Positions 235 through 43,164 are shown, counted from the stretch's first letter. The stretch is DNA of 64,000 nt from Candidatus Latescibacterota bacterium (GCA_965215195.1 CBDCDC010000002.1:4640001-4704000); one strand, 5' to 3'. The notes: a model not told the origin generated them from the letters alone. Program-made: numbers and translations.

Positions 235-1050
235 ATGCTGCTTTTGTGCGCGATTTTGCTCGCCGCCTCGGCCGCGTGCGCGGACGTGAACATCAACGCC
301 CCCTTGTTGGAGGCGGCCCCGACCATTGACGGCGACCTCGCCGAGTGGAAGGACCGCGCCCACAACGACGGCGTCTGGGACATGCGCCGCATCAGCGAGG
401 CCAGCTTCTACCGCCTCGATCGCGGCGCCCGCAACCGCCTCACTGACCACGGCCACGAGCCGCCCCTCGAAGACGACTTGAGGGCCCGCTATTACATTGC
501 TTGGGACGCGCAAAATTTCTACTTCGGGGCCGAGGTGTGGGACAATGTCAACGACCTCGACGACCCGGAGCCGGCGGACAAGCGCTGGTATTTTAAGGAT
601 GCGATTTGCTGGTTTATGGAAGGCCCGCGCGACCGGGCCAACGAGCGCTTTGGCCAAGGCGACAATGCCTTCTGCTTTGTGGCCGACCCGCAGCGCACCC
701 CGCAAAACGCTTGGTGGAGGCACGGCGCACCCGGCCAGAGCTACGTGGAAGAGCCGATCCCCGAGGCCGCTTGCGACTACGTCGTGCGCCTAGATCCTTG
801 GGGCCGGAGCGCGGCCGATTTCATCTTGGAAGCTCGCGTCGAGATGGCGCCGACGTTTGGCCAGAGCGACCCCCGCTGGCAGCCGCCGCAAGTGGGGGAC
901 GAATACAGCATGGAAATCGTCCACACCGACCCGGATGGCGGCGCGTACGGCGGGCACTTCATGATCTACGGCAATGGCGATGACGACAACACGTGGGGGC
1001 GGATGATCTTGGTCGGTCCGCGGACGCCGATTGGGCGGCTCGCCGAGTAG
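235..1050 (+). CDS. Secreted CBM9/DOMON-like sugar-binding domain protein
   Basis: GAGGAG RBS then ATG 235; signal peptide; APTIDGDLAEW and AWDAQNFYFGAEVWD motifs typical of CBM9_1-like domains. Confidence 0.65.
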   Translation: MLLLCAILLAASAACADVNINAPLLEAAPTIDGDLAEWKDRAHNDGVWDMRRISEASFYRLDRGARNRLTDHGHEPPLEDDLRARYYIAWDAQNFYFGAEVWDNVNDLDDPEPADKRWYFKDAICWFMEGPRDRANERFGQGDNAFCFVADPQRTPQNAWWRHGAPGQSYVEEPIPEAACDYVVRLDPWGRSAADFILEARVEMAPTFGQSDPRWQPPQVGDEYSMEIVHTDPDGGAYGGHFMIYGNGDDDNTWGRMILVGPRTPIGRLAE

Positions 1051-1091
1051 GCCCAATAGATCGTTCACTACACCAGAGAAAGGAGGGTGCT

Positions 1092-1628
1092 ATGCTCAGC
1101 CCCAATCCAGCCGTCAAGTTCACCTACGAGGACTACCAGCACACCCCGGAGGACCAGCGCTACGAGTTATTGGATGGAGAGTTGATTATGGTTCCCGCGC
1201 CCAATCTAGGACATCAGAGAATTGGTATCCGGCTAGGAGCGTTACTCCACAGCTTCGTACAGAAGAGGGGGTTAGGCGAGGTCTTCCACGCGCCCTGCGA
1301 CGTGGTGCTGTCGAATACGGATGTGGTACAGCCGGACCTATTGTTCGTTTCCAATGCTCGAGCGCACCTGCTGCGCGGCGGCGCGAGTGTCCTCGGTGCA
1401 CCGGATTTGGTCGTCGAAATCCTGTCTCCCTCTACTGCCGGGCGGGATCGGACTCTCAAACGCGCCCTGTACGCCGAGCACGGCGTGCAGGAATACTGGT
1501 TGGTCGATCCAGACGCTCGGACGGTGACGGTGCTGCGGCTCGGAGAGGAGGCCATTTACGGCGAGGGGCAAACGATGACCTCGCCCATGCTTGCAGGTTT
1601 CGCCGTTGACTTAAACGAGATTTTCTAG
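1092..1628 (+). CDS. Uma2 family (DUF820) endonuclease-fold protein
   Basis: AGGAGG RBS; YELLDGEL, HQ, VQPDL, APDLVVEILSPST, YAEHGVQEYWLVDP motifs. Confidence 0.9.
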   Translation: MLSPNPAVKFTYEDYQHTPEDQRYELLDGELIMVPAPNLGHQRIGIRLGALLHSFVQKRGLGEVFHAPCDVVLSNTDVVQPDLLFVSNARAHLLRGGASVLGAPDLVVEILSPSTAGRDRTLKRALYAEHGVQEYWLVDPDARTVTVLRLGEEAIYGEGQTMTSPMLAGFAVDLNEIF

Positions 1629-2152
1629 TGTTTCTGTCCTTGGCAATCGCGGCCCTCATCGCCCTCGCCGGTTGCAAGTCCCATGTGGTCTCCGTGGACG
1701 TTGGTCGAGCGCCGGCGTTCACCGTACCTGCGGCGGATGGGACTTCTGTTTCCCTGGCCGACTTACTCGACGACCGCACGGCCGCGGTCCTGCTGTTTTA
1801 CAGAGGATTCTTCTGAGGTATCTGTAGGAACCAACTAGGTGAGTTGGCAGATATGTATCCCGAGTTTCTAAAGCGAAATGTGTCGCTTGCGGCGATCAGC
1901 ACGGATGACACCACCGACGCCCTGAAAATGGTAGAGCTCACCGGCGCTGAATTCGCCATTCTGTCAGACAAGGACGCCGAGGTAGCCAAGGGCTACGGAG
2001 TGTACAACCTGTTAGGTGACGGCCTCGCGACGCCGTCCGCCTTCATCGTCTCGCCCGAGGGCGACATCAAATGGCAATACGTAGGGAGAAACATCTCCGC
2101 CCGTCCGCCGCCCGATGCAATTTTGGCGCAAATCGATCGCTTGACAGAGTGA
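1628..2152 (+). CDS. Selenocysteine-containing AhpC/TSA (peroxiredoxin-like) lipoprotein; UGA at 1814-1816 read as Sec
   Basis: ORFs 1628-1816 and 1844-2152 are in one frame: LFYRGFF-U-GICRNQLGEL (UxxC at the CxxC position); lipobox LAGC; AP-F, AISTD, LSD, PSAFIV thioredoxin-fold motifs. Confidence 0.85.
1814..1853 (+). promoter_or_regulatory. Bacterial SECIS-like stem-loop
   Basis: Directly after UGA: TATCTG(1819-24)/CAGATA(1848-53) lower stem, CCAACT(1831-36)/AGTTGG(1842-47) upper stem, loop AGGTG. Confidence 0.75.
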
Positions 2153-2301: not shown

Positions 2302-4155
2302 TCAGACCGCTTCTAAACGATCTCTTGGCGTATTGAGCACAAAACCGGAGCGCTCGCTATCAGGGACGATGAATTCTTTTTTTGTCAATCGCTCAAAAGC
2401 GTCCATTACTTGGCGGACGTGGTCGGCGAATGTATCGGGGTCTTGCACAGCGCCGAGTTCGTGCCAAAGGGCTAAGATGATCTCTGGGGCCGCCATGGCC
2501 TTGCGGGATGCGAACTTTTCGCATCGCCACATCACATTAAGGCACCTCCGCGACAGGGAATCCAGACCGCTGAGGTCGCCAAATAGTGCTTCCAGTTCTG
2601 TGCGGTAATCCATTTGCATTAGTACGCGATCGGCGACGAAAATGGGCTGCGTCGGTGTGCTGCGCTCGTGTTGGTAGATTAGGCCGGCGCGTTCTAGCAC
2701 TATGAGCTGTTCAAAGTGATTGTTGTCTGGCGTCAGCAGAATGGTGTAGTGATGTTTTTCATTCGCCCATTCCGTCTTCATCAGGTAGGAGAGTACGCGC
2801 GTTTGTTGGGCAGAGAGCGGCCCAGCGAGTTTGCCGGCAATATAGGCGTCAAACGAAGCAAGCCGCGCTTTCATGCGCTTGTCGACTAAAGGACCGGCGT
2901 TGAGAAAGAGGGTTACTTCTTCGCTGTAAATGCGATAGGTCGGCAGGCCGAGCTGATTTTCCAAGCACAGGTTTACCAACGTGGCCATGCCAATGCCCCG
3001 GCCTTCCCATTTCCGATACACCCGCAGCACATCCGCTAGCTTGGGGTTGCGCGCTCGGGCCTCGGGGATGATGCGGCGCAGTGGAATGGCATCTCTTGGA
3101 TGCTCAATGAGCAAGTGCGGGCGGAACGATCCCGGATTGCGAATGGAAATGTGTTGCCCCGGCTTGATGGAAATGATGACTTGCTTGTTGATGGAATAAT
3201 CGCGGTGGGCGAGGGCATTGTTTACTGTTTCGCGCAGCACTTCCTCGGGATATTGCGGCACGGCCGTGCCGCCCTCGGCAATGGAAATGCCGATCTGAAT
3301 GTTGCGCAGGATGTAGGCGAGGCTTTGCTCCATCAGCGGCAGGATGTTGTCGATTAGGTCCTGCTTATCTTGGGCGACTTCTTGCGGCGCATCTACATAG
3401 CCGTGGACGTGGCAGCGGAAGCCGAGTTGGTCGCCTATGTGCTGCCCGCATACTAACATGCCGAGGGTGGTGACGGTTGCGTCCTTGATAAACAGTTTGC
3501 GGGCGAGAAATCCGCGTGCAGCTTCCAGATCCGCCTTGATGGTTTCCACTTTGCCAAGACTGTTGAGCTGTTGGATGTAGCCATTGAGCGCGTCGAGGTT
3601 GAGGTCGGCGAGGGTCGCGCCCGGCACGGGCTGTACTTCGCGGGCGTCCCGCACCTGCTCCTTGTAGTCTTCTTGGCGAGCGATCTCTGCTTCGGTGAGC
3701 TTGTGGTCGCCGGTCAAGACGCGCTTCCACGCCTGTCCATTGTAAAAGACGAACTTGCGGTCGGCGGGTAGTTCATCTACGTAGAGCACGGCCACGCGAC
3801 CATTTTGAAAGTGGCGGATTTGCGGCGGTGGGAAGGCTGCACTCAGGTTGAGCGGCGTTCCGTTTTGGTCCGTAAAGAGGCGGGGGAATTCCTTTAGCTG
3901 TGCCTCGGCGTCCTCTCGGTAGCCGGTGAAGACCCAGTGGCGCTGCGGGCCTTGGCCTTCTTCCTTGAAGCCGAAGAGGAGGAGGCCGCCGCGGGTGTTG
4001 AGAAAGGCGTTGGCAGACTTGTGGCTTTCGCGCCAAGAAGAGGTAGCGGACGGAGTGGGTTTGATCTCCAAGCCATCGTCCTCCACGTCCTCAAAGCGTC
4101 CTGCCGCGATGAGGGCCGCTAGCTTCTTCAGGACCTTGTCTATTCTATCGGGCAT
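2302..4155 (-). CDS. AlbA_2 (Schlafen-like) + HATPase_c_4 (RecG C-terminal-like) ATP-binding protein
   Basis: ANAFLNTRGGLLLFG, LRETVNNALAHRDY, NPG, RNPKLA, EGRGIGM motifs; probable start MPDRIDK at 4155. Confidence 0.8.
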   Translation of the reverse strand: MPDRIDKVLKKLAALIAAGRFEDVEDDGLEIKPTPSATSSWRESHKSANAFLNTRGGLLLFGFKEEGQGPQRHWVFTGYREDAEAQLKEFPRLFTDQNGTPLNLSAAFPPPQIRHFQNGRVAVLYVDELPADRKFVFYNGQAWKRVLTGDHKLTEAEIARQEDYKEQVRDAREVQPVPGATLADLNLDALNGYIQQLNSLGKVETIKADLEAARGFLARKLFIKDATVTTLGMLVCGQHIGDQLGFRCHVHGYVDAPQEVAQDKQDLIDNILPLMEQSLAYILRNIQIGISIAEGGTAVPQYPEEVLRETVNNALAHRDYSINKQVIISIKPGQHISIRNPGSFRPHLLIEHPRDAIPLRRIIPEARARNPKLADVLRVYRKWEGRGIGMATLVNLCLENQLGLPTYRIYSEEVTLFLNAGPLVDKRMKARLASFDAYIAGKLAGPLSAQQTRVLSYLMKTEWANEKHHYTILLTPDNNHFEQLIVLERAGLIYQHERSTPTQPIFVADRVLMQMDYRTELEALFGDLSGLDSLSRRCLNVMWRCEKFASRKAMAAPEIILALWHELGAVQDPDTFADHVRQVMDAFERLTKKEFIVPDSERSGFVLNTPRDRLEAV

Positions 4156-4358
4156 TTTTGCAAGTTGCGGCAATGGATAGTGGGTGGCGCTGCGGCACAG
4201 GGCTGCAGCGGGCCTGTAAAGATAACGGGATGTTGAAGAATAATCGAATTTTACCCTCTTCGGGCAGAATGTCGCGCCCGCAACGCCATCCTCGACAGAC
4301 CGCCCCCGCAAAGCGATATTAAACGCGGCACATCTTCTTTTTAATAAGGAGCAATACA

Positions 4359-5957
4359 ATGAGTAGGGTAGATCAGATCGGCTGGCACGCCGAGAGCAAA
4401 ACCGGCGTCATTGCGGCCGGTGGGGCCGGGGCCGTAGCCGCCGGCATTGAAATTCTCGGCGCGGGCGGCAATGCAGCCGATGCCGCAGCCGGCGCGATTC
4501 TCGCGCTCAACGTCACCGATCACGGAGCCTGTTCCATCGGCGGGGAAGTGCCGGTGCTCATCTGGGACGGAAACGCGGTCAAGTCGCTGTCCGGTCAGGG
4601 ACGTGCGCCCCTGTCGCCGGCGGCCATTGCTTGGTACATGGAACACGGCATCCCAGACCACGACATCAAGATGGCCCCGGTGCCTTCAGTCGTGGATTTG
4701 TGCATTACCCTGTTGCAGCACTACGGTACGCAGAGTTTTGCCGCGATTGTCGCGCCGACCTTGGCCCTGCTCGACGAAGGCGAGGAGGCGTGGCACCCCG
4801 ACTTGGCGCGGACGCTGCGGCGCATGGTGGAGGAGGAGCATTGCGCCGCTGGCAATCGCCGAGAGAAGCTGCAAGCAGCCGGCGATCACTTCTATGGCCG
4901 TCGCGCCGAGCACGGCGATATAGCCGAGGATCTGGAGGCGTTTTACGTGGAGCAGGGCGGGTTCTTGCGCCGCGCGGATCTGGCCGCCCACAGGACCTTG
5001 ATCGAAGAGCCGGTGGCCGTCGATTACCGAGGCTACCAAGTGTACAAGTGCGGCCCGTGGACCCAAGGCCCGTATCTGTGCCAAGCCCTGCGCCTGCTCG
5101 AAGGGTTTGATCTCAAAGGCATGGGGCATTGCTCGGCCGACTACGTCCACGCGGTCGTCGAAGCCATCAAGCTGGCCATGGCCGACCGCGACGCGCACTA
5201 CGGCGACCCCCTGTTCGTGGATGTGCCCATGAACGCCTTGCTGTCCGACGACTACACCCAACTCCGGCGGCCCCTGATCGACATGGGCCAAGCCGCGCTG
5301 GACGCCCGCCCCGGCGACCCGCTCGGCATGAGGGCGGTGCAGGAGGGGGGCGCGTTCCGGCCCGGAGTCGGCGGCACCACCACGTGCGTGGTGGCCGACC
5401 GCTGGGGCATGGTCGTATCGGCCACGCCGAGCGCGAATGTCTATCGCGCTGGCGGCAGCGGCAGCACGGGCGTCTCCTACGGCAACCGCCTGCGCAGCCT
5501 CAACACGACCCCCGGACACCCCAACTGCATCGCCCCGGGCAAGCGGCCCCGCATCACCCTGACCCCCACGCTGGTGCTCAAAGACGGCGCTCCCGTGTTA
5601 GCTATCAGCGTGGCTGGCGGCGATCTGCAAGACCAAGCCACCTTGAACCTGTTGCTCGACTTTGTGGAATTTGGGATGCGACCAGCCGAAGCGGTCGTGG
5701 TGCCGCGCTTTGCCACGGACCACCACGAGGACTCGTTTGACCCCAACCCAGTGCGCGAGCAGACATTCATCGAGGCCGGCTCGCTGGCTATCAGCGCGGC
5801 TGTTGATGGGCAAGTGCGGGGCGAACTGGCGCGGCGCGGCCACCAAGTTGAGGCCCGCAACGGCCCCATCGCCACCCCGGTCATGCTGTGGGCCGACGCG
5901 GGCACGTACTACGCGGCCGGCGATCCGGCTGCGGGCCGCCACGCGGCCGGGCTGTGA
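4359..5957 (+). CDS. ggt: Gamma-glutamyltransferase family protein
   Basis: GGNAADAA, PVPS, AIKLAMADRDAHYGDP, GTT nucleophile, PGKRP, GGDLQ motifs; AAGGAG RBS. Confidence 0.88.
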   Translation: MSRVDQIGWHAESKTGVIAAGGAGAVAAGIEILGAGGNAADAAAGAILALNVTDHGACSIGGEVPVLIWDGNAVKSLSGQGRAPLSPAAIAWYMEHGIPDHDIKMAPVPSVVDLCITLLQHYGTQSFAAIVAPTLALLDEGEEAWHPDLARTLRRMVEEEHCAAGNRREKLQAAGDHFYGRRAEHGDIAEDLEAFYVEQGGFLRRADLAAHRTLIEEPVAVDYRGYQVYKCGPWTQGPYLCQALRLLEGFDLKGMGHCSADYVHAVVEAIKLAMADRDAHYGDPLFVDVPMNALLSDDYTQLRRPLIDMGQAALDARPGDPLGMRAVQEGGAFRPGVGGTTTCVVADRWGMVVSATPSANVYRAGGSGSTGVSYGNRLRSLNTTPGHPNCIAPGKRPRITLTPTLVLKDGAPVLAISVAGGDLQDQATLNLLLDFVEFGMRPAEAVVVPRFATDHHEDSFDPNPVREQTFIEAGSLAISAAVDGQVRGELARRGHQVEARNGPIATPVMLWADAGTYYAAGDPAAGRHAAGL

Positions 5958-6120
5958 GCCACGGGTTAGTGGCCAGTCCCCGCACATAACTTAGGGGCGC
6001 AAACGGACCACTAACCACTCAATAGACGGGGACTAGCGCGGCAGGATTGCGGCTGCGGTGTCTTGAAACCATATTGTCCGCTTTGAATCCCGCTAGAATC
6101 GCCTCTGAAGCTGGCTTTTG

Positions 6121-8118
6121 ATGACGTCGCCGACTGCGGCCCCTACATACCGAGAAACGCACGCTCGCCAAGGTGCGGCCAGCGGGCTCACGCTCCGCTC
6201 CTTGGTGCTCGGCGTCATCCAAGTCCTCGTGGTGTGCTTGGGCGCGCCCTACGCCATTTGGGTCTTGGGGTCGTCCGAAATCACGTGGTCGTTCTTTCCG
6301 ATTGCCGTCGGCTTCTCGTTTTGCTGCCTCATCCTGCTCAACATCTTGCTCAAGACGATCAACCCCGGCTGGGCCTTGCGGCCGGCCGAGATGATCACAG
6401 TCGTGGTCATGGGCTTGGTGACGACCGGCATTCCCATCTTTATGATGGGCTACGTGCTGTCGATCCCCACCACGCCCTATTACTTTGCCTCGGCTGAAAA
6501 CCAGTGGGGCACGTACGTGTTGCCCTACCTGCCGACGTGGCTGTTGCCGAGCAACGAGGGCTTGGCCATGACGTGGTTTTTCGAGGGGCTGCCGCTCGGG
6601 GAGCCCATGCCTTGGGGCACCCTGCTCGATGCGTGGGCCATGCCGCTGTTTTGGTGGCTGAGCTTTATCTGGACCTTGTACGCGGTCTGTTTTTGCCTCG
6701 TCGTCGTATTGCGCAAGCAGTGGGTTGAGCGCGAGCGGCTGGCCTATCCCCTGATGGAGGTGCCGCAAGCTCTCGTGGCGGATGCCGATGGCCCTGCGCG
6801 CGTACCGGCCGTCTTGCGCAACAAGGTCTTTTGGCTGGGGGCGGCCCTCCCCTTGTGCATCGTCTTGTGGAACATCGTCGGCTTTTTCTTTCACTTCTTC
6901 CCCAAGATCGAATGGCATCATCCCATCCAAATCGCGCACGGCTTTCCGACCATTAACATCCGCTTGTACTTCCCGGTCGTGGGCTTCATGTACTTCGCCA
7001 ACCTCAACGTCACCTTCAGCATCTGGTTTTTCTTTTTACTACTGCTGCTCGAAGAGGGCCTGTTTAACCGCTTTGGCATTGGCGTTACCGAGGCCGACAA
7101 CTTTGTGTGGGGCTTGCCGTCGACGTCTTGGCAGTGCTGGGGGGCGTTTGTGGTGCTGGTGCTGTGGGGGTTGTGGATGGCGCGCGATCACCTAAAAGAC
7201 GTGGTGCGCAAAGCCTATAACCCGGCTCATCCGGTTGACGACAGCCGCGAGCTCATGTCCTACCGCAGCGCGGTCATCGGCCTCTTGGTCGGGGTCGTCT
7301 ATATGCTAACTTGGCTCAACAAGGCCGGCATGGAATGGCCGGTGGCGGCGTTTTTTTTGGGCGGTGTGCTCATCGCCTACTTGGGCATCACCCGCTTGGT
7401 GGTGCAGGCCGGCGTCTTTTACCTGACGACGCCCGTGGTCAGCCAAGCCATGACCATGATGACCTTTGGCACGAGTGCGATTTCGCCGACGGGCTTGGCG
7501 GCCTTGGGGATGAGCTATGGGTTCTTCAGCGATGTGCAGTCGATTTTCATGCCGTCGGCCGCCCATGCCACCCGGCTGCACGACGCCATGCGCATGAGCC
7601 GCCGCGGCCTGTGCTTGGCCATTGCGCTGGCCCTGTTGGTCGGCTTTGTCGCCGCCATTGCGTACGTCATTGCCATGGCCTATGAGCAGGGGGCCTCCAA
7701 CTTCAACTCTTGGTTTTTCCGCGTTTCCTCGGGCGCGGGGGTGCGCTCCTTTGACGACGCGATGAGCAAGATAAAAACCCCGGCCGATTTCCACGCGCAA
7801 AAGCTCAGCTTCTTCGGCGCGGGCGCGGGCGCCATGGCGGTTTTGACGTTTATGCAGTATCGCTTCCCGTGGTGGCCCCTACACCCGGTGGGCTTGGCCA
7901 TCTCCGCGATCTGGATGGTGCGCAACCAAGCCCCGGCCATCTTTGTGGCGTGGGCGGCCAAGAGCCTGATCATGCGCTTTGGCGGCATTGAGCTATACCG
8001 CAAGGCCGCGCCCTTCTTCATCGGCCTGATCCTCGGGCACTTCTTCGGGGTGGGGATCTCGTTTATCGTCGATATGATTTTCTTTCCCGGCAACGGCCAC
8101 CCCATCCTGCACGGCTGA
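6121..8118 (+). CDS. Polytopic membrane protein, DUF6785/DUF6784 family (putative transporter), copy 1
   Basis: Many TM helices; LRKQWVERERLAYPL, RFPWWPLHPVG, RFGG..LYRKAAPFFIGLILG family motifs. Confidence 0.8.
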   Translation: MTSPTAAPTYRETHARQGAASGLTLRSLVLGVIQVLVVCLGAPYAIWVLGSSEITWSFFPIAVGFSFCCLILLNILLKTINPGWALRPAEMITVVVMGLVTTGIPIFMMGYVLSIPTTPYYFASAENQWGTYVLPYLPTWLLPSNEGLAMTWFFEGLPLGEPMPWGTLLDAWAMPLFWWLSFIWTLYAVCFCLVVVLRKQWVERERLAYPLMEVPQALVADADGPARVPAVLRNKVFWLGAALPLCIVLWNIVGFFFHFFPKIEWHHPIQIAHGFPTINIRLYFPVVGFMYFANLNVTFSIWFFFLLLLLEEGLFNRFGIGVTEADNFVWGLPSTSWQCWGAFVVLVLWGLWMARDHLKDVVRKAYNPAHPVDDSRELMSYRSAVIGLLVGVVYMLTWLNKAGMEWPVAAFFLGGVLIAYLGITRLVVQAGVFYLTTPVVSQAMTMMTFGTSAISPTGLAALGMSYGFFSDVQSIFMPSAAHATRLHDAMRMSRRGLCLAIALALLVGFVAAIAYVIAMAYEQGASNFNSWFFRVSSGAGVRSFDDAMSKIKTPADFHAQKLSFFGAGAGAMAVLTFMQYRFPWWPLHPVGLAISAIWMVRNQAPAIFVAWAAKSLIMRFGGIELYRKAAPFFIGLILGHFFGVGISFIVDMIFFPGNGHPILHG

Positions 8119-8125
8119 GGCCGCG

Positions 8126-10093
8126 TTGTCAACCCATCCCGCACAGCAAGAGGGCACAGGCGTCACCGTGCGCTCCTTGGTCGTGGGCTGCGGAGTGGTG
8201 GCGTTGATCAGCTTGGGGGCACCGCACTCGATCTGGACGTTTGGCTCGTCCGAGATGACGTGGTCGTTCTTTCCGCTCGGGGTGGGGTTTCTCTTTGTCG
8301 GCCTCATCTTCGCCAACGCCCTGCTCAAGACCTTCAACCCCAACTGGGCCCTGCGCCCGGCCGAGATGATCACCGCTGTCGTCATGGGTTTGGTCTGCAC
8401 TGGCATCCCGGTTTTCCTCATCGGCTACTTCCTAGCCATACCGACTACGCCTTATTACTTTGCGTCGGCCGAGAACCAATGGGGCACCTACGTACTGCCC
8501 TACCTGCCCGCTTGGCTGTTGCCGAGCAACGACGGCTTGGCCATGACGTGGTTTTTCGAGGGCCTACCCATCGGCGAACCTACCCCTTGGCACACCTTGC
8601 TAGCCGCTTGGGCTATGCCGCTGTTTTGGTGGCTGAGCTTTATATGGACTTTGTACCTAGTCTGCTTCTGCGTGGTGGTCATCCTGCGCAAGCAGTGGGT
8701 CGAGCGCGAGCGGCTGGCCTATCCCTTGATGGAAGTGCCGCAAGCCCTCGTCGCCAACGCCGACCGCTCCCGCAGGCTGCCAGCGGTCATGTACAGCAAA
8801 GTCTTCTGGGCGGGAGCGGCCATTCCGCTTTGCATTGTCTTGTGGAACATCGTCGGCTTTTTCTTACACTTCTTTCCCAAAATTGAGTGGCATCACCCCA
8901 TTCAGGTTGCGCCCGGTTTTCCGACCATTAACATCCGCTTCTACTTTCCAGTCATCGGCTTCATGTACTTCGCCAATCTCAACGTCACCTTCAGCATTTG
9001 GTTCTTCTTTTTGCTGATGCTGATCGAGGAGGGTTTGTTCAACCGCTTTGGCCTCGGCGTCACCGAGGCGGATAAGTTCGTTTGGGGGCTGCCGTCGACG
9101 TCTTGGCAGTGTTGGGGGGCGTTTGTGGTGCTGGTGCTGTGGGGGCTGTGGATGGCGCGCGACCACCTCAAGGACGTGGTCCGCAAGGCGTGGAATCCAG
9201 CCTACCCGATTGACGATCGCCGCGAGTTGATGTCCTATCGCGCCGCCGTGCTGGGCCTCTTGCTGGGCACCTTCTACATGCTAACTTGGCTGCACAAGGC
9301 CGGCATGGAATGGTCGGTGGCCGTGCTCTTTTTGGCCGGCGTCCTCATCGCCTATTTGGGTATTACGCGCCTAGTGGTCCAGACCGGCGCGTTCTACCTG
9401 ACCACGCCCGTCGTCAGTCAGGCGATGACCATGATGACGCTGGGCACCAGTGCCATTTCGCCGACCGGGTTGGCGGCCTTGGGGTTGACCTATTCCTTTT
9501 TCGGCGACGTGCAGTCCATCTTCATGCCCTCGGCCGCGCACGCCGCCAAGCTGCACAACAGCCTGCACATTGCCCGCCGCGGCTTTGTCTTGGCCATCGC
9601 CTTGGCCGTGGTCCTGTCCTTCGCCGTTTCCCTGACCAACCTCATCGCCATGGCCTACGAGCAGGGGGCTTCCAACTTCAACTCCTGGATCTTCCGCGTC
9701 TCCTCGGGCGCGGGCGTGATGGCCTTTGGCGATGTCGTCGCCAAGATCAAGGCCCCGGCCGATTTCCACGCGCAAAAGCTCAGCTTCTTCGGCATTGGCG
9801 CGGCCGCCATGGCGGTTTTGACCTTTATGCAGTACCGCTTCCCGTGGTGGCCCCTGCACCCGGTGGGCTTGGCTATCTCCGCGATCTGGATGGTGAGGAA
9901 CCAAGCCGCGGCCATTTTTGTGGCGTGGGCGGCCAAGAGCCTGATCATGCGCTTTGGCGGCATCGAACTGTATCGCAAGGCCGCGCCCTTCTTCATCGGC
10001 CTCATCGCCGGCTACTTCCTCGGCGTTGGCCTCTCCTTCCTCGTCGATGTGGCGTTCTTCCCCGGCAACGGGCATCCGATTCTGCACGGCTGA
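8126..10093 (+). CDS. Polytopic membrane protein, DUF6785/DUF6784 family, copy 2
   Basis: Closely similar paralogue of 6121-8118 with long identical stretches. Confidence 0.8.
   Translation: MSTHPAQQEGTGVTVRSLVVGCGVVALISLGAPHSIWTFGSSEMTWSFFPLGVGFLFVGLIFANALLKTFNPNWALRPAEMITAVVMGLVCTGIPVFLIGYFLAIPTTPYYFASAENQWGTYVLPYLPAWLLPSNDGLAMTWFFEGLPIGEPTPWHTLLAAWAMPLFWWLSFIWTLYLVCFCVVVILRKQWVERERLAYPLMEVPQALVANADRSRRLPAVMYSKVFWAGAAIPLCIVLWNIVGFFLHFFPKIEWHHPIQVAPGFPTINIRFYFPVIGFMYFANLNVTFSIWFFFLLMLIEEGLFNRFGLGVTEADKFVWGLPSTSWQCWGAFVVLVLWGLWMARDHLKDVVRKAWNPAYPIDDRRELMSYRAAVLGLLLGTFYMLTWLHKAGMEWSVAVLFLAGVLIAYLGITRLVVQTGAFYLTTPVVSQAMTMMTLGTSAISPTGLAALGLTYSFFGDVQSIFMPSAAHAAKLHNSLHIARRGFVLAIALAVVLSFAVSLTNLIAMAYEQGASNFNSWIFRVSSGAGVMAFGDVVAKIKAPADFHAQKLSFFGIGAAAMAVLTFMQYRFPWWPLHPVGLAISAIWMVRNQAAAIFVAWAAKSLIMRFGGIELYRKAAPFFIGLIAGYFLGVGLSFLVDVAFFPGNGHPILHG
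9982..10022 (+). repeat. Direct repeat 1a (DUF6785 3' region; partner 14391-14431)
   Basis: CGCGCCCTTCTTCATCGGCCTCATCGCCGGCTACTTCCTCG; 39/41 match to partner. Confidence 0.85.
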
Positions 10094-13918: not shown

Positions 13919-14413
13919 ATGACCACAGAGACAACCAAAAAGATCAACCAAACGCTCGAACTCGTCGTAGAGACCCTCGTCCGCTCACACCCCTTCGAGC
14001 GGATCGTTCTATTCGGCTCCCATGCTACAGGTCATAGCCAATGGGACAGTGATTTGGACTTACTCGTAGTCTGGCAGACGGGTTTGCCTCCGTTGGAGCG
14101 CACCCTTGAAACGCGCCGTCTGCTCGAAGGCATTGATTGCCCCTTGGATATTGTCGTGTACACCCCCGCCGAATTGGACTATTGGAAAGAAGCTCCGTCT
14201 TCATTCGCGTCCCAGATATTGGCCGAGGGCATCACTTTATATGAGCGAAACTCCGCAAGAACTTCAGTTGTGAATGAGCCTCAAGGTCGGCGTTCACTGG
14301 ATATTGCCCAAGCTATTCGCCGGGATTGCCGGGCCTACCTGATGGAGTTGGAGCCAACGCTTTTTGACCAATTGACCGCTACTCCCGCATCGCGCCCTTC
14401 TTCATCGGCCTAA
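13919..14413 (+). CDS. Minimal nucleotidyltransferase (MNT) antitoxin-type protein with aberrant C-terminal tail
   Basis: LFGSHATG...SDLDLLVV, DIVVYTP, EGITLYER; tail beyond LYER looks like read-through into a HEPN remnant. Confidence 0.8.
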   Translation: MTTETTKKINQTLELVVETLVRSHPFERIVLFGSHATGHSQWDSDLDLLVVWQTGLPPLERTLETRRLLEGIDCPLDIVVYTPAELDYWKEAPSSFASQILAEGITLYERNSARTSVVNEPQGRRSLDIAQAIRRDCRAYLMELEPTLFDQLTATPASRPSSSA

Positions 14414-19556: not shown

Positions 19557-20761
19557 GGCCGCACCACGCTGCCGTCGGCCCGGCGATCCTCGGCCGCGTA
19601 AAAGGCGCACACCTGATCCCCCACCAACAAACTCTTCGCCCTCTCCTCGTCGATGTCGATCCCCAATCCCGGCTGGTCGTTGGGATACATGTACCCCCCT
19701 TCCATGGTCGCGTGTCCGGGAAACGCCTCCAGCTCTTCTGGCCGGAAGCCGTTCTCCTCTTGGATCCCGAAGCTGTAGCTCGCCATGTCTAAGTGCATGG
19801 CCGCCGCTTGGTTGACCGGATCGTTGTCCCCGCCTTCCTGCCAAGCGGTCTGCACCCCGTAGAATTCGCAGAGCGCGGCGATTTTGCGGCAGGGGGTGAT
19901 GCCGCCGCCTTTGGCTACCCGCACGCGGATGTAGTCGATGAGGCGCTCGCTGATCAGGGGCAGGTATTCGTGGACATTGACGAATAGCTCGCCCATGGCC
20001 TGCGGCGTGGTGCATTGCTGGCGCATGAGCCGAAACCAGCCAATCTGCTCCGGCGCGAGCGCGTCTTCGAGAAAGAAAAGCCGGTAGGGCTCCAGCCGCT
20101 TGGCCAGTGCCACCGCGACTTGGGGTTTGAGGTGCTCGTGGACGTCGTGGGTGAGCTTGGGGCCAAATCCGAGGTGCTTGCGGAGGTAGTCGAACATGGC
20201 CGGGATGGCTTCGAGATAGGCTTCGTCGTCAAAGGCCGGTGCCGCCGACCACGGGTTGCGCGGCTTGATCGCGTCTTCCACGAACCCGCCGCCGCCATAG
20301 CCGCCGAGTTGGCAGCGGATCACTGGCCAGCCCTCGTCGATGTAGCGCTGGATGTCATCGACGAGCGCTTCGTGGTCGCTGCCGCCGGCGTGGGCGTAGC
20401 AAGGCACGGCCGCGCGGCAGGCCCCGCCCAGCAATTCGTACACGGGCATCCCGGCCTCTTTGCCCTTGATGTCCCACAAGGCCATGTCGATGCCGCCCAG
20501 CGCGGCGTTGAGGATGGAGCCGCTGCGCCAGTAGCCGCTGGTGTAGAGGCACTGCCAGATGTCTTCGATGCGGCTGGCCTCGCGGCCAATCAGCAGCGGT
20601 CCTAGGCTCTCTTCGAGGGCCGTGGCGACCGTGGCCGCGTGGTTGTGCTCGCTAGCCGAGCCGATGCCGTAGAGACCGGGCTGGTCGGTGATGATTTTGA
20701 CGATGACCCACGTGCCGTTCTGGCGGGTGCGGATGCAGCGGACTTCCTCGATCTTGGCCAT
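19553..20761 (-). CDS. Enolase superfamily D-mannonate dehydratase/RspA-like protein
   Basis: GIDMALWDIKGK.AGMPVYELLGG, HDVHE, FFLED, AMGE, GGITP, PGLGIDIDE. Confidence 0.88.
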   Translation of the reverse strand: MAKIEEVRCIRTRQNGTWVIVKIITDQPGLYGIGSASEHNHAATVATALEESLGPLLIGREASRIEDIWQCLYTSGYWRSGSILNAALGGIDMALWDIKGKEAGMPVYELLGGACRAAVPCYAHAGGSDHEALVDDIQRYIDEGWPVIRCQLGGYGGGGFVEDAIKPRNPWSAAPAFDDEAYLEAIPAMFDYLRKHLGFGPKLTHDVHEHLKPQVAVALAKRLEPYRLFFLEDALAPEQIGWFRLMRQQCTTPQAMGELFVNVHEYLPLISERLIDYIRVRVAKGGGITPCRKIAALCEFYGVQTAWQEGGDNDPVNQAAAMHLDMASYSFGIQEENGFRPEELEAFPGHATMEGGYMYPNDQPGLGIDIDEERAKSLLVGDQVCAFYAAEDRRADGSVVRP

Positions 20762-20830
20762 TGGCCTCCTCCTTGCGTAAGTTTGAGCTTAAAAATAGTA
20801 AGCTCCCCGTCAGCCAAAAAGAGAACGCAG

Positions 20831-22528
20831 ATGAATTTCAACGCCACCAACAGCACGTTTCGCCAACTTATGGGCAATGGGCTGAGTTATCGCGTACCGC
20901 TGTTCCAACGCGACTATTCTTGGGGGGCCGACGAGTGGGATGACCTGTGGCAGGACCTTGTTGCGCTGTTCGGCGAGGATCCAGAACCCGCTCATTACAT
21001 GGGCTATCTAGTACTGCAATCGGCGGACAACAGGGCGTTCGACATCATCGATGGACAGCAGCGCATGACCACGCTGAGTCTGTTGATGCTGGCGGCGGTG
21101 GCGCATCTGACGGACTTGGCCGCGCCGGGTGACTTAGCTGACCCACAACGTCGGCGCGCCGAGCAGTTGCGTCTCACGTACATCGGTTATTTGGACCCCG
21201 TGAGCCTAGTACCGCGCTCCAAGCTGACGTTAAATCGGCACAACGATCGCTTTTACCAGAATTACCTAGTTCCCCTAGAGAGTCTGCCGCAGAGGGGATT
21301 GAACGCATCGGAACATCTCCTGCGCCGGGCGTTTCTCTGGTTCAAGGATTGCATCAAGGAACGATCCGGTGACGATGGTGAGTCGGTGGCGCGCTTTGTC
21401 GATGGCGCGGTGGATAAGCTGTTTTTTACGATCATCAGCGTTACAGACGAATTGAATGCCTTCAAGGTGTTTGAGACCCTGAACGCTCGCGGCGTGCGCT
21501 TGTCCGCTACCGATTTGCTGAAGAATTACCTGTTTTCCGTCGTCTCGCGTGGTAAGGCGCACGAATCGGAGCTCAACACTTTGGAAGACCGCTGGGAGAG
21601 TATCGTCGGGCTGCTGGGCAGTGAGAGCTTTCCCGAGTTCTTGCGGGTCTTCTGGAACAGCCGCAACAGGCTGGTGCGCAAGGCGGACTTGTTCAAAACC
21701 ATGCGCAGCGCCATCAGCGATAGGTCTAGGGTGTTTCGGTTGATCCGCGATATGGACCGGCACGCCCGGGTGTATTCGGCTCTGCGCCGCCCCGAGGACG
21801 GCTCTTGGACAGCAGCGGAGCGCACAAGTCTAGCCCAGTTGCAGATGTTCAACGTGCGTCAGCCATTGGCGTTATTGCTGGCGGCATTTGAGCGATTCGA
21901 GGAACGCGACCGCGCCGGCTTTGGACGCTTTTTGCAGGCTATCGCGGTAGTATCCTTTCGCTACAACGTGATTTGTGGCCGCCAAAGCAACGAGCAGGAG
22001 GTTGTGTATAACCAGATTGCCCGCGAGCTATCGGCAGGCAAAATTGTCAGTGCGAAAGCAGCGATTGCCAAGCTGCGGCCAGTCTATCCCGAGGATGCAG
22101 AATTCAGGGCGGCGTTTGTACAAAAGGCGCTGCGCACAACTAGCCCCCGCAACAACAAAGTCGTGCGCTTTATACTGTTCCGGCTCGAAGCGCAGTTGTC
22201 GGGACAGCGCTTTGAATTTGAGAGCGCGAAATACGGCATTGAGCACGTGTTGCCGGAAAATCCGAGTGCCGACTGGCACCAGTTCGATGACCAACAGCGG
22301 GAGGCTTCTACGTATCGTCTAGGCAACATGACTCTCTTGACGACCGCAGACAATCGCGATGTGGGCAACTCGGGATATGCCGAAAAGCGATTGGCCTACC
22401 AAGAGAGCGGCTTCGCAATAACGCGCAAGCTGGCAGAGGACTTTGATACTTGGACCGTGGAGAAGCTCCGCTCACACCAAATTTGGATGGCAAGGCAAGC
22501 TACGGGCATCTGGCGAGTCAGTTTCTGA
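20831..22528 (+). CDS. GmrSD-type (DUF262 + DUF1524 HNH) modification-dependent restriction endonuclease
   Basis: VPLFQRDYSW, DGQQR, FETLNARG, EHVLP, LGNMTLL..N motifs. Confidence 0.85.
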   Translation: MNFNATNSTFRQLMGNGLSYRVPLFQRDYSWGADEWDDLWQDLVALFGEDPEPAHYMGYLVLQSADNRAFDIIDGQQRMTTLSLLMLAAVAHLTDLAAPGDLADPQRRRAEQLRLTYIGYLDPVSLVPRSKLTLNRHNDRFYQNYLVPLESLPQRGLNASEHLLRRAFLWFKDCIKERSGDDGESVARFVDGAVDKLFFTIISVTDELNAFKVFETLNARGVRLSATDLLKNYLFSVVSRGKAHESELNTLEDRWESIVGLLGSESFPEFLRVFWNSRNRLVRKADLFKTMRSAISDRSRVFRLIRDMDRHARVYSALRRPEDGSWTAAERTSLAQLQMFNVRQPLALLLAAFERFEERDRAGFGRFLQAIAVVSFRYNVICGRQSNEQEVVYNQIARELSAGKIVSAKAAIAKLRPVYPEDAEFRAAFVQKALRTTSPRNNKVVRFILFRLEAQLSGQRFEFESAKYGIEHVLPENPSADWHQFDDQQREASTYRLGNMTLLTTADNRDVGNSGYAEKRLAYQESGFAITRKLAEDFDTWTVEKLRSHQIWMARQATGIWRVSF

Positions 22529-22613
22529 GAGGGCAATGCCGTTCCGTGCTCGTTTGAGCGTAGAGTCCGGTGCCTCCACGTATCTCGCATCCATTATAAA
22601 GGATATAAGCGCA

Positions 22614-24251
22614 ATGTCAGCCTATTTGCATACAATGTCTTTCTCATTAGCGCTTTTGGCCTCCGTGCTCTGGCCAGCCGCTCCAGCCCATGCTTGGGGT
22701 ATTCTACTCAGCCGCGACGGCGTTCCGGTCGAAATGACCGAGGTCAAAGCGTTGTTTCTCGTGGGGGAAGACAGCACGACGGTTCACCTGAAAGCGTATT
22801 TTACCGGAGCGTCACAGGACTTCGTCTGGCTCGTACCTGTACCTTCCACATCGACAGCCGAGCTCAGCCATAACAAGATATTTGAGCGGTTGGATGAAGA
22901 TACACGACCTCGCTACGTTTTGTTACCTGAGGTATCTGCATTTCCCAATGAGACGTGGAGTGATAAAAAAATAAAAGAACGGTTTGGATTCGTCCCGGAC
23001 CTGCCAGAACTCACTTTTGAGAACGAGCGCAATGAAGCGTGTTTCAATCTGGCTTATGAGTGGTTTTTTCCAATTGCTGACTCCTTTGGTTGTGGCGGCT
23101 GCCCTACCGTAATTTTGGCATACGTGGAAGAAAGAGAGATGCGCTCCGCTACCATCATCAAGGCCCAGTCTCCGAGCGAGATTGCAGCTTGAGTGGAATT
23201 GAGCATTGACCTCGAATCACTACGCAATCCCGAAAACCTCGGTGCTTTCATGAGAGACCTTTGGCGTATCGGTAATCCCGGGGGGCAATTAGATCTGAAA
23301 CTTCTACAGTTGCTTAGGCAACATATACCCATACCGGATGCGGTACTCGAAGAGATCAAGCGAGAAGGTATGGACGGAATGGCCCCCCTAGGCGCGATCT
23401 ACAGCGCGACCTACTCGAAGATGGATTGGAGTGCCTGGAGTGCCGCAGAGTTCCACACGTATGCCGAGTCCCAGTTTTACAGCTTTCCCGATCAGTATGA
23501 AGACTTCTACGACAACGAGTGGTTCGATTTTTCGGGGTTTGTCGATGACTGGGTAACTTATATCCACGAGCCCAATACCAAGACGCAACAGGCACTCGTG
23601 GCCCGCCCCTATCTGACGCGACTCGCCACCTTCGTTTTTCCCGACAAAACAGAAATTGATCCCGTTTTCAACTTCAATCCAGACTTGGGTCAGGTCAACC
23701 ATCTCTACAATTTGGGTCGTCTGGGCTTTGAGTGCCGCGGAGGTGAGGATGGAGGATACGATATTTCGGATCTCATAGCTGTGGTCGGCTTGGAAGGTGG
23801 CCATATACTCCGCTACGGATTTAGTTGGGACGGAATCAATCGCTACGAAGATTCTGAAATTCCACCTGCCGCCGCGCACCGCATCGAGCAACTGAGCACG
23901 TCAGGACCGCCCGTGGTGCTATTCCGTGAGACGGCGGTTTTAGATGCTGGTGAACAGCCTGTCGCGGCCCGCTTGACGCTCTCTGCCAACCGTCCCAATC
24001 CGTTCAATTCCAGTACAAGTGTCTCTTATACCATTCCCGCAGGCACAATGCGGGTTGCCCTGCGAGTCTATAACGTTCTCGGACAATCCGTGCGTACGCT
24101 CGTGGAGCAGAGCACCCCCACGGCCAGTTTCCACACTATTAGCTGGGACGGCCAAACGGATGCAGGAACTCCCGTCACCAGTGGCATCTACCTGTTGGCA
24201 TTACAGGCAGATGACAAGTTGCTGACGCGCAAAATTATGCTCATACGATAG
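22614..24251 (+). pseudogene. DUF2330-like secreted protein with FlgD/T9SS-like CTD, split by in-frame TGA (23190-23192)
   Basis: Signal peptide, FVWLVPVP and F..LD..TRP (DUF2330 N-terminus); same frame continues after TGA to YLTRL..DPVF.FNP and NRPNPFN CTD. Confidence 0.6.
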
Positions 24252-30687: not shown

Positions 30688-31005
30688 TTATTGAGGATCT
30701 GACGATACAAAATCTACTGACAGCCGCAGACCCATACCGCGCAGGATGGCGGCTAAGGTATGGAGACGGGGATTGCCGCCCGCCGATAAGGTTCGATAGA
30801 TATTGGACCGATTCAAGCCAGTTTTCTCAGCCAGTTTTCTCAGCCCTCCTTGCGCCTCTGCTATATCCCGTAAAGCCAGCAAAAGCGCTCCGTCGTCGTT
30901 ATCGCTCTGATACTCCTCTAAGGCCACATCAATGTACGCTTTAGCCTTGACAGGATCGTTGAGTTCCTGCAAATGGAATTCCTTAAAGGTTCCTAATTTT
31001 CTCAC
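30688..31005 (-). CDS. Addiction module antidote protein (Cro/C1 HTH, HigA-like)
   Basis: AYIDVALEE..LLLALRDIAEAQGG..LAEKTGLNRSNIYRTLS.GGNP. Confidence 0.9.
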   Translation of the reverse strand: MRKLGTFKEFHLQELNDPVKAKAYIDVALEEYQSDNDDGALLLALRDIAEAQGGLRKLAEKTGLNRSNIYRTLSAGGNPRLHTLAAILRGMGLRLSVDFVSSDPQ

Positions 31006-42093: not shown

Positions 42094-43164
42094 TAGGACT
42101 TACGCAGTTGGATAGTTTAGGATAAGATAAAGGCTATTCCCCCTCCACCGCGAGCCCGTCCGATGAACCCAGCCAAGTGTGCCGACCACGACTACATCCA
42201 CTTCCTGATCGCCGCTCAGAGTGTCTTCAGTTGTACCGAGGCCGCCCGCTGTCATCCGGAGGATGGCCCTCCTGTGTCCCATGACGCTTTCACGCGCCTG
42301 CTGACAAGACAGCCTCCCGATACCGAGGCGTTGTGGCAAGAGACCCAAGGGCTGGTTCGCCTCCAAGGCGGCGTGTTAGTGCTGGACGATTCCACCTTGG
42401 ACAAGCCCTATGCCAAGCGGATCGAACTGGTGACGCGCCATTGGAGTGGCACCCATCACCGGGTAGTCTGGGGCATCAACCTTATAAGTATGGTCTGGTC
42501 GGACGGCCATGCTTGCATTCCCTGCGACTTCCGCGTCTATGACAAGCCTATCGGGGGCCACAATAAGAACGAGCACTTCCGGGCGATGCTGGCCAGCGCC
42601 CAAGCGCGCGGCTTTCAGCCGGCGTGCGTGGTGTTCGATAGCTGGTATGCGTCCCTGGACAACCTCAAGCGGATTCGCTCCTACGAGTGGGCTTGGCTGA
42701 CGCGCCTCAAGGCCAACCGACAGGTCAACCCGGAGGGGAGCGGCAACGTGGCGATCCGCTCGGTGGCTATCGGACCGGAGGGCCGGCGGGTACATCTCAA
42801 AGGCTATGGGTTCATCAAGGTATTTCGGACGGTCTCGGCAAACGGAGACGCGCACTACTGGGCAACCAACGACCTAGAGATGGCAGTCAGCCGGTTTGAG
42901 GCATGGTCCAAGCGGGCGTGGTCCATTGAGACGTATCACCGAGGCCTCAAGCAGTGCTGCGGCGTTGAGCAGGCGCAGGTTCGGTCGGCCCGGGCGCAGA
43001 GAAATCATATCGCGTTGTCGATCCGCGCCTTCGTGCGGTTGGAGGTGCATAGACTCCAAACCGGCGTTAGTTGGTATGAAGCCAAAAGGGACATCATCCG
43101 ACAGGCCGTCCAGCGGTATCTGCAACGACCATTGCACAGGCTCAGTTCAACTGCGTAAGTCCTA
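42094..43164 (+). mobile_element. IS701-family insertion sequence
   Basis: Perfect 17-bp TIRs TAGGACTTACGCAGTTG / CAACTGCGTAAGTCCTA; flanking 5-bp direct repeat TGGTA. Confidence 0.92.
42163..43158 (+). CDS. IS701-family DDE transposase
   Basis: SHDAFTRLL, LDDSTLDKPY, VFDSWY, WSIETYHRGLKQCCG. Confidence 0.92.
   Translation: MNPAKCADHDYIHFLIAAQSVFSCTEAARCHPEDGPPVSHDAFTRLLTRQPPDTEALWQETQGLVRLQGGVLVLDDSTLDKPYAKRIELVTRHWSGTHHRVVWGINLISMVWSDGHACIPCDFRVYDKPIGGHNKNEHFRAMLASAQARGFQPACVVFDSWYASLDNLKRIRSYEWAWLTRLKANRQVNPEGSGNVAIRSVAIGPEGRRVHLKGYGFIKVFRTVSANGDAHYWATNDLEMAVSRFEAWSKRAWSIETYHRGLKQCCGVEQAQVRSARAQRNHIALSIRAFVRLEVHRLQTGVSWYEAKRDIIRQAVQRYLQRPLHRLSSTA

Follow-up and report, generated by a model that had tools for sequence, protein, structure and literature searches.

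The locus at positions 1628-2152 of a 64,000-nucleotide stretch of DNA from a Candidatus Latescibacterota bacterium (CBDCDC010000002.1:4640001-4704000), which at its full length is called the window below, raised the question of whether two short open reading frames (ORFs) parted by a TGA are separate pieces of DNA or one gene in which the TGA is read as selenocysteine (Sec, U). An initial annotation of the window had favored the second answer. In our analysis the locus was best explained as a single gene for an exported, membrane-anchored UxxC selenoprotein that would act as a thiol-disulfide oxidoreductase, and the probability of this whole explanation was put at about 0.82. The exported, membrane-anchored Sec redox protein proposed earlier appeared essentially right, on the conservation of the TGA, the hairpin behind it and the export signal. 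The gene and its redox pair were located as follows.

1628-2152, plus strand: complete putative selenoprotein gene (a single frame, with an AhpC-TSA domain over the TGA and residues 27-174 modelled as one domain at a predicted local distance difference test (pLDDT) score of 97.6).

1814-1816, plus strand: TGA read as selenocysteine, residue 63, the first of U-G-I-C (TGA in 84/84 copies, Cys in 111/121 distant homologues).

1823-1825, plus strand: TGT codon of Cys66, the partner of Sec63 (invariant in 58/58 aligned members and aligned with the peroxidatic Cys of Bcp, 2cx3).

The frame counts 174 codons, from a GTG start at 1628 to a TGA stop at 2150-2152, and its sole internal in-frame TGA, at 1814-1816, lies within FYRGFF-U-GIC, so that the read-through product contains ...AAVLLFYRGFF-U-GIC-RNQLGELADMYPEF.... 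ORF calling with translation table 11 gave two pieces, 1628-1816 (62 residues) and 1844-2152 (102 residues). The internal TGA was bridged by the Pfam domain AhpC-TSA over residues 27-149 with an E-value of 1.7e-28 and 99.5 bits (cut-off 26), and a Pfam Redoxin match likewise extended across it. The single frame and the domain across the TGA bore out the claim of the initial annotation that the two ORFs are one frame split by a TGA exactly at the first Cys of a CxxC motif. A search of 5.8 billion proteins found 95 relatives of the window protein, 92 of which were 96-112 residues long and held the post-TGA part only, mostly starting at Met76; gene callers therefore split the relatives in the same way, just as had been suspected for the window gene. 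As a normal stop, TGA terminated 19 of the 49 ORFs called in the window as well as the selenoprotein gene itself, which indicated a local recoding, and a changed genetic code was rejected on this count. A scan for promoters and terminators returned nothing useful.

No second selenoprotein was found in the window: among 68 TGA-bridged frames flanked on both sides by 50 codons or more, a Pfam domain ran across the TGA only at this locus. Another pair of plus-strand ORFs, 22443-23192 (partial DUF2330 match) and 23193-24251 (C-terminal sorting domain of the type IX secretion system), share one frame and are parted only by a TGA with a GTG right after it. Neither a hairpin resembling a selenocysteine insertion sequence (SECIS) nor a domain spanning the stop was found for this pair, so these are probably two coupled genes.

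The conservation of the TGA was determined by a locus scan of one genome per species with peptide patterns of the C-terminal half, which was hence blind to the redox motif. The scan gave 80 loci in metagenome-assembled genomes labelled Latescibacterota, Gemmatimonadota, Dehalococcoidia, Anaerolineae, Caldilineaceae and Spirochaetia. These loci hold 83 copies, including three extra tandem or fused ones, and make 84 copies together with the window. The homologous codon was TGA in all 84, although protein identity to the window ranged from 39 to 83% and four phylum-level labels were covered. Both positions of the motif U63-G-I-C66 were invariant in the 58 aligned family members. For distant homologues, HMMER was run against 1.84 billion cluster representatives and gave 5404 hits, of which the best 150 were examined; 29 of them were post-TGA fragments and 121 spanned residue 63. 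The residue at the Sec position in these 121 representatives was Cys in 111 (110 as CxxC), Ser in 7, Trp in 2 and Asn in 1, which agreed with the expectation, set down beforehand, that homologues would carry Cys at the UGA. Cys forms were found even inside the family, namely P0098 (FYRGFFCGIC), which shares 58% identity with the L033 copy, and P0099, which shares 53% with that of L029. The passages on prediction in a 2026 review (PMC13188914) name Sec/Cys pairs as a signature of selenoproteins, and the distribution of TGA and Cys seen here matched it.

Broken copies also exist in the family. In L048 (2746-4309) the SECIS region is interrupted by a minus-strand transposase gene of the IS630 family (2775-4001), and the C-terminal part of the selenoprotein gene picks up again at 4001. 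The N-terminal part of the L022 copy (4045-4518) is out of frame, with a match length of 518 nucleotides (nt) and an unrelated upstream peptide; this copy is either a frameshifted pseudogene or an assembly error.

The hairpin behind the TGA, which the initial annotation had described as a two-part SECIS with an AGGTG loop, comprises the following elements.

1831-1847, plus strand: conserved SECIS core, a 6-bp stem CCAACU/AGUUGG with the loop AGGUG (92.1% of cells paired, covariation, fit to the bacterial SECIS model).

1818-1854, plus strand: extended hairpin including the lower stem (minimum free energy structure; present in the window copy, unconserved in the family).

The fold of 67 nt from the UGA showed a lower stem (1818-1824/1848-1854, seven pairs with one G-U), a 6-nt bulge and an upper stem (1831-1836/1842-1847) with the apical loop AGGUG at 1837-1841, starting 20 nt after the UGA. 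According to a figure legend in PMC13188914 (Fig. 2), a bacterial SECIS (bSECIS) has a loop of 3-9 nt and a stem of 4-16 bp with G in the first two loop positions, lies 16-37 nt from the UGA and has a minimum free energy (MFE) of -7.5 kcal/mol or lower. The window copy showed a 6-bp stem, the loop AGGUG with G at position 2 and then G-U, a spacing of 20 nt and an MFE of -11.7 kcal/mol, and 79 of the 84 copies agreed with the model in all four respects.

The 84 copies were aligned without gaps over 48 nt and pairs were counted explicitly. In the upper helix, 92.1% of cells were paired, and four of the seven pairs showed compensatory changes: column pair 18-34 was CG in 33 copies, GC in 24 and UA in 7; 21-31 was AU in 34, GC in 30 and GU in 7; 22-30 was CG in 65 and AU in 5; and 24-28 was CG in 32 and GC in 11. 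The covariation score was 0.280 compared with 0.168 +/- 0.010 in shuffles (0/500 as high), and it decreased to 0.06-0.11 when partners were slid by one to three columns. The states A-U, G-C and G-U at 21-31 alternated even among close Dehalococcoidia relatives. Some compensatory changes crossed amino-acid changes, such as CUC..GAG (Leu, Glu) to AUC..GAU (Ile, Asp), and CUC..GAG to CUG..CAG (Glu to Gln). RNAalifold on the same 48-nt alignment returned only the inner four pairs with a weak energy, hence the reliance on explicit pair counting. The lower helix was paired in only 55.8% of cells and is not a family feature. In this way, the identification of the hairpin as a SECIS was upheld by the fit to the model and by the covariation, and of its two parts, both of which are present in the window, the upper one turned out to be conserved but the lower one did not.

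The N-terminus of the product pointed to export.

1628-1675, plus strand: predicted lipoprotein signal peptide MFLSLAIAALIALAG, with the lipobox L-A-G-C at residues 13-16 and the codon of Cys16 at 1673-1675 (sequence; clade conservation).

The lipobox of bacterial lipoproteins follows a hydrophobic h-region and has the consensus [LVI][ASTVI][GAS]C, and the stretch LIALAG|C at residues 10-16 fits it. The lipobox LAGC noted by the initial annotation was accordingly present. Of the 24 copies that make up the window's clade (window, L001-L023 and L048), 23 kept it in the form L-[AVTP]-G-C; L022, which is frameshifted upstream, did not. Over the whole family, 54 of 84 copies had a hydrophobic stretch followed by a strictly defined lipobox. 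The others, judged by eye, had looser lipoboxes (e.g. LSAAC), signal anchors, plain signal peptides or a long N-terminal extension opening with a transmembrane segment. Some export or anchor signal was present in every family copy read, so the Sec domain seems to have an extracytoplasmic role in the whole family.

Residues 27-174 were modelled by AlphaFold2 with 58 family sequences at a mean pLDDT of 97.6, and the Sec position directly preceded helix 1 in the model. Peroxiredoxins came top in Foldseek, with Bcp4 (3hjp) at a template modelling (TM) score of 0.90, followed by AhpE and PrxQ (TM range 0.81-0.90). The residues expected of the peroxiredoxin catalytic set, PxxxT/SxxC with the peroxidatic Cys and a conserved Arg, were compared by profile alignment to Bcp (2cx3). 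The stretch F-F-P-A-A-F-S-P-V-C of 2cx3 corresponded to F-Y-R-G-F-F-U-G-I-C in the window protein, which placed Arg59 at the Pro, Sec63 at the Ser/Thr and Cys66 at the peroxidatic position; K-R-A-V-F-I-V corresponded to T-P-S-A-F-I-V, with Pro136 at the catalytic Arg. Cys66 alone was retained from the motif, and membership of the true peroxiredoxins was rejected on the replacement of the catalytic Pro, Ser/Thr and Arg.

2033-2035, plus strand: invariant Pro136, in ATPSAFIV (family alignment column P110; aligned to the R of KRAVFIV in 2cx3).

Pro136 is presumably the cis-Pro of thioredoxin-like oxidoreductases. A CxxC motif with a facing cis-Pro is the arrangement of thioredoxin, ResA and TlpA, and TxxC with Arg is that of peroxiredoxins. 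Based on the UxxC motif and on Pro136 in place of the Arg, the window protein was read as a UxxC thiol-disulfide oxidoreductase on a peroxiredoxin-like scaffold. The term peroxiredoxin-like, used in the initial annotation, holds for the fold, with its TM score of 0.90 to Bcp4, but not for the active site, which resembles that of thioredoxin and ResA.

The same backbone gives some ground to an enzyme that acts as a peroxidase, in which Sec63 would be oxidized to selenenic acid by peroxide and resolved by Cys66, protecting the envelope rather than reducing protein disulfides. Bcp4, AhpE and PrxQ are the nearest proteins by structure, and peroxiredoxins are also nearest by sequence profile; in the table of PMC13188914 that lists selenoprotein motifs, the UxxT of proteins like glutathione peroxidase offers a parallel for Sec at the first position; and a gene for an OsmC domain lies upstream of the family member in L067. 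The peroxiredoxin triad is gone, however, with Arg for the Pro of PxxxT, Sec for the Thr/Ser and an invariant Pro for the Arg, and relatives in which the domain is fused to a TlpA-like thioredoxin domain or to cytochrome c, given below, suit an electron relay from protein to protein. A peroxidase was considered unlikely on this balance.

Several observations weigh against a membrane-anchored selenoprotein. The first of them concern the hairpin as such. The 67-nt fold had -14.3 kcal/mol and a z-score of -1.09, no better than shuffles, and the 6-bp stem of the window alone was weak at -5.4 kcal/mol; a single sequence therefore proves nothing, and the support for the hairpin comes from the comparison with relatives. 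In that comparison the shuffle control on covariation takes no account of relatedness. Five of the 84 copies departed from the bSECIS model, namely the copy of L048 broken by an insertion sequence and four AT-richer Dehalococcoidia copies. Additionally, the whole window gave no Rfam match at gathering thresholds, a result to be read with the point that the presence of a bacterial SECIS model in Rfam was not checked.

A further objection is that the palindrome is partly due to the conserved peptide Q-L-x-E-L, shared by most Cys homologues. Since this peptide itself favors a palindrome, the constraints on Sec and Cys forms were compared. Of the 58 Sec forms, 56 had a loop codon for Val or Gly (GUN/GGN), and all had Q7 and L11; in the Cys forms (n=111) the loop position was free, and Q7 and L11 were kept in 95 and 71, respectively. 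Among the 21 closest sequences, synonymous diversity was 0.02 per hairpin codon compared with 0.21 at 69 other single-residue codons, and the seven-codon hairpin window had the second lowest synonymous diversity of 142 windows.

Outside the hairpin, the n-region M-F-L-S read from the GTG at 1628 lacks Lys and Arg, and with them any positive charge; where the upstream Uma2 gene is absent, relatives begin M-H-R-S or K-K-M-H-R. The links to cytochrome c and copper proteins seen in relatives are absent from the window's clade. As for the machinery, tRNA-Sec was not found by ARAGORN in the 64-kb window or in the flanks of 60 loci, and selA, selB and selD were not found in an NCBIfam scan of 45 ORFs, the scope of which was the window. 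Finally, the two representatives with Trp at the Sec position, P0101 and P0103 (F[FY]RGHFWGIC), share 45-56% identity with TGA-bearing copies, and both are lipoproteins. The most simple and likely account of this Trp is a TGA translated by a gene caller under a table that reads it as Trp.

The points on the machinery and on Trp would suit a UGA that is passed without selenium, whether read as Trp, as Cys or as another near-cognate residue, or bypassed by reinitiation, with the hairpin as a stimulator or without a role. The codon nevertheless stands at the catalytic Cys of CxxC, as TGA in every copy and as Cys in 111 of 121 distant homologues; in its spacing and its G-[G/U] loop the hairpin agrees with SelB-dependent elements; and a Trp in place of the redox Cys would inactivate the center. 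Decoding without selenium was judged very improbable for these reasons. A dead gene or two unrelated small ORFs, with the TGA a nonsense mutation and the remainder decaying, can draw on gene callers reporting the C-terminal piece of 99-102 residues only and on the genuinely broken copies of L048 and L022, but scarcely merits belief, because the protein sequence on either side of this TGA is conserved in 84 copies from distant lineages, with no scattered stops, and the two halves form one confidently predicted domain. A pseudogene was rejected on these grounds.

With these alternatives weighed, the reading as a membrane-anchored selenoprotein suggests the following course of events. The gene would encode a membrane-anchored selenoprotein located outside the cytoplasm and made as a precursor of 174 residues. 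In translation, the UGA at 1814-1816 would be decoded as selenocysteine, and the mRNA hairpin at 1831-1847, 20 nt downstream, would recruit SelB and Sec-tRNA(Sec) to the ribosome, as suggested by its fit to the bacterial SECIS model and by the covariation. The signal peptide with its lipobox LAG|C probably directs export and lipidation at Cys16, to judge by the motif and its conservation. The mature domain would combine a peroxiredoxin-type backbone with a redox center of the thioredoxin/ResA/TlpA type, in which Sec63 is predicted at the N-terminus of helix 1 with Cys66 three residues on and Pro136 facing both, and this center would cycle between the selenol/thiol and the selenenylsulfide. The protein is expected to act as a thiol-disulfide oxidoreductase on non-cytoplasmic substrates, which it most likely reduces. 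Its partners may belong to the extracytoplasmic reducing pathway and to the maturation of cytochrome c or copper proteins, a lead taken from the fusions and neighbors of relatives.

The neighborhood was scanned in 40 loci with 83 ORFs. A gene for CopC-CopD adjoined the selenoprotein gene in six of the 40 loci, all of them Dehalococcoidia (L024, L025, L027, L028, L032 and L043); CopC-CopD was fused to cytochrome c in five (about 730-770 residues), and the protein of L043 had 692 residues without cytochrome c. A cytochrome c gene lay next door in L025 and L061. Fusions of the Sec domain itself were also found. In L043 (3926-4855) it was fused in frame with a cytochrome c domain (CxxCH) according to Pfam. 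Nine copies, from loci labelled Caldilineaceae, Anaerolineae/Anaerolineales or Chloroflexota (L040, L045, L046, L047, L056, L059, L063, L073 and L076), had a WCPxC stretch upstream in frame, with about 430-500 residues before the Sec and an apparent N-terminal transmembrane segment. Pfam was run on two of them, L040 and L046, and placed a Redoxin/Thioredoxin domain ahead of the Sec domain in both, with a SurA-N-like region in L046. A single frame in L075 (3587-5077) encoded two AhpC/TSA domains with a Sec each (TGAs at 4124 and 4751), joined by a Pro/Thr-rich linker, and L038 (2700-4474) and L044 (2718-4426) held tandem paralogous genes with the motifs FYRGFWUTFC and FYRTYRUGIC.

The cytochrome c fusion of L043, the TlpA-like fusions and the CopC-CopD-cytochrome c genes of the six Dehalococcoidia loci raise the idea that the family is a selenium-dependent counterpart of ResA/TlpA, which would act as an anchored reductant outside the cytoplasm on Cys pairs of apocytochromes c or of copper-handling proteins (CopC/CopD, Sco, CoxB). 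This idea is offered tentatively and is rather doubtful; such links are absent beside the window's own gene, and a partnership with cytochrome c or copper proteins is a lead from relatives only. If true, it would tie selenium to the assembly of respiratory chains in Chloroflexota, Latescibacterota and Gemmatimonadota.

In the window itself, the gene is preceded by a Uma2-family gene for a putative restriction endonuclease (993-1628, plus strand), the TAG stop of which overlaps the GTG start by one base. In relatives Uma2 was a variable insert, found upstream in about nine copies (LKRDFLVFL...) and downstream in L010 and L016, and absent where the selenoprotein gene starts MHRS. The window's clade had a CBM9-like secreted protein upstream and a gamma-glutamyltransferase downstream, with Uma2, DUF2442 or AAA genes variably inserted around the copies; the gamma-glutamyltransferase gene directly adjoined in L017 and lay at 4359-5957 in the window, after an inserted minus-strand gene. 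Farther along the window, the plus-strand genes 6118-8118 and 8126-10093 encode adjacent large membrane proteins that look like paralogues from similar peptide stretches, the first of them matching DUF6785 and DUF6784. Defense or mobile genes were located at 13919-14413, 20639-22528, 30688-31005, 42163-43158 and 46330-48486, for which an MntA-like antitoxin, a GmrSD-type restriction endonuclease, a HigA-like antidote protein, an IS701-family transposase and a DUF1156 anti-phage-associated protein were listed.

The family has been overlooked in genome annotations, as 92 of the 95 relatives in the protein collection are C-terminal stumps and no NCBIfam model reaches its cut-off, and selenoproteome counts for Latescibacterota, Gemmatimonadota and Chloroflexota probably miss it. 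The window gene leaves the knowledge of how Sec is encoded unchanged. It does add a clear example of a predicted exported selenoprotein, one that an anchor would keep outside the cytoplasm and that has retained Sec in all fetched copies. This constancy suggests that the protein requires a selenol in that oxidizing compartment, for instance to reach a low redox potential or to withstand over-oxidation. No paper on lipoprotein selenoproteins or on Latescibacterota selenoproteins was found in full-text searches of the literature; survey supplements may list such sequences.

Among known proteins, the nearest class is that of the peroxiredoxin-like (Prx-like) selenoproteins with UxxC. Table 2 of the Global Ocean Sampling survey (PMC2398784) lists 225 sequences of Prx-like 1, pfam00578, UxxC; the entry in the 2026 review reads "Prx-like thiol:disulfide oxidoreductase, PF00578, UxxC/UxxU", predicted with high confidence, with WP_010940744.1 as the example; and the part of a 2016 comparative study (PMC5029168) on this class gives 28 organisms with it. 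The window gene fits the class as far as its sequence goes, since a PF00578 domain holding Sec and a UxxC motif are both present. Going by these entries, the two share the Pfam domain, the Sec position and the prediction logic of Sec/Cys pairs and bSECIS. When compared by the class description, the window's subfamily differs in being lipoproteins or otherwise anchored outside the cell, as predicted, and in having Sec in every fetched copy, and the passages on the class in PMC2398784 and PMC13188914 do not mention Latescibacterota, Gemmatimonadota or Chloroflexota for it.

The top NCBIfam match was NF040769 (SelL-related redox protein), with which the family shares a center of the FYRGxxUxxC type on a Prx-like fold. 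All 58 family members scanned matched it, with a best E-value of 7e-26, and the scores for the window protein were 54.1-54.9 bits against a cut-off of 120, so that by the NCBI threshold the family is a sister group and not a member. ResA was the second-best NCBIfam match (46.6-49.3 bits, cut-off 170), and ResA structures were matched by the family profile at 65-69 bits; the window protein possibly works alike, without being a member. Like ResA, TlpA and CcmG, it would be a membrane-anchored extracytoplasmic protein with an xxC-x-x-C center and a facing Pro; it differs in having Sec in place of the first Cys and a backbone nearer to peroxiredoxins. Bcp/PrxQ and AhpE (2cx3, 3hjp, 1xxu) were the best matches among solved structures in both structure and sequence, but their catalytic Pro, Thr/Ser and Arg are all replaced in the window family. 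Known Prx selenoproteins carry Sec at the peroxidatic position, as TxxU, in the table of PMC13188914, and against that pattern the Sec of the window family sits three residues earlier. Placed among these systems, the family represents a subfamily that is new, unannotated and widespread, within a kind of protein known for about twenty years, since the 2000s.

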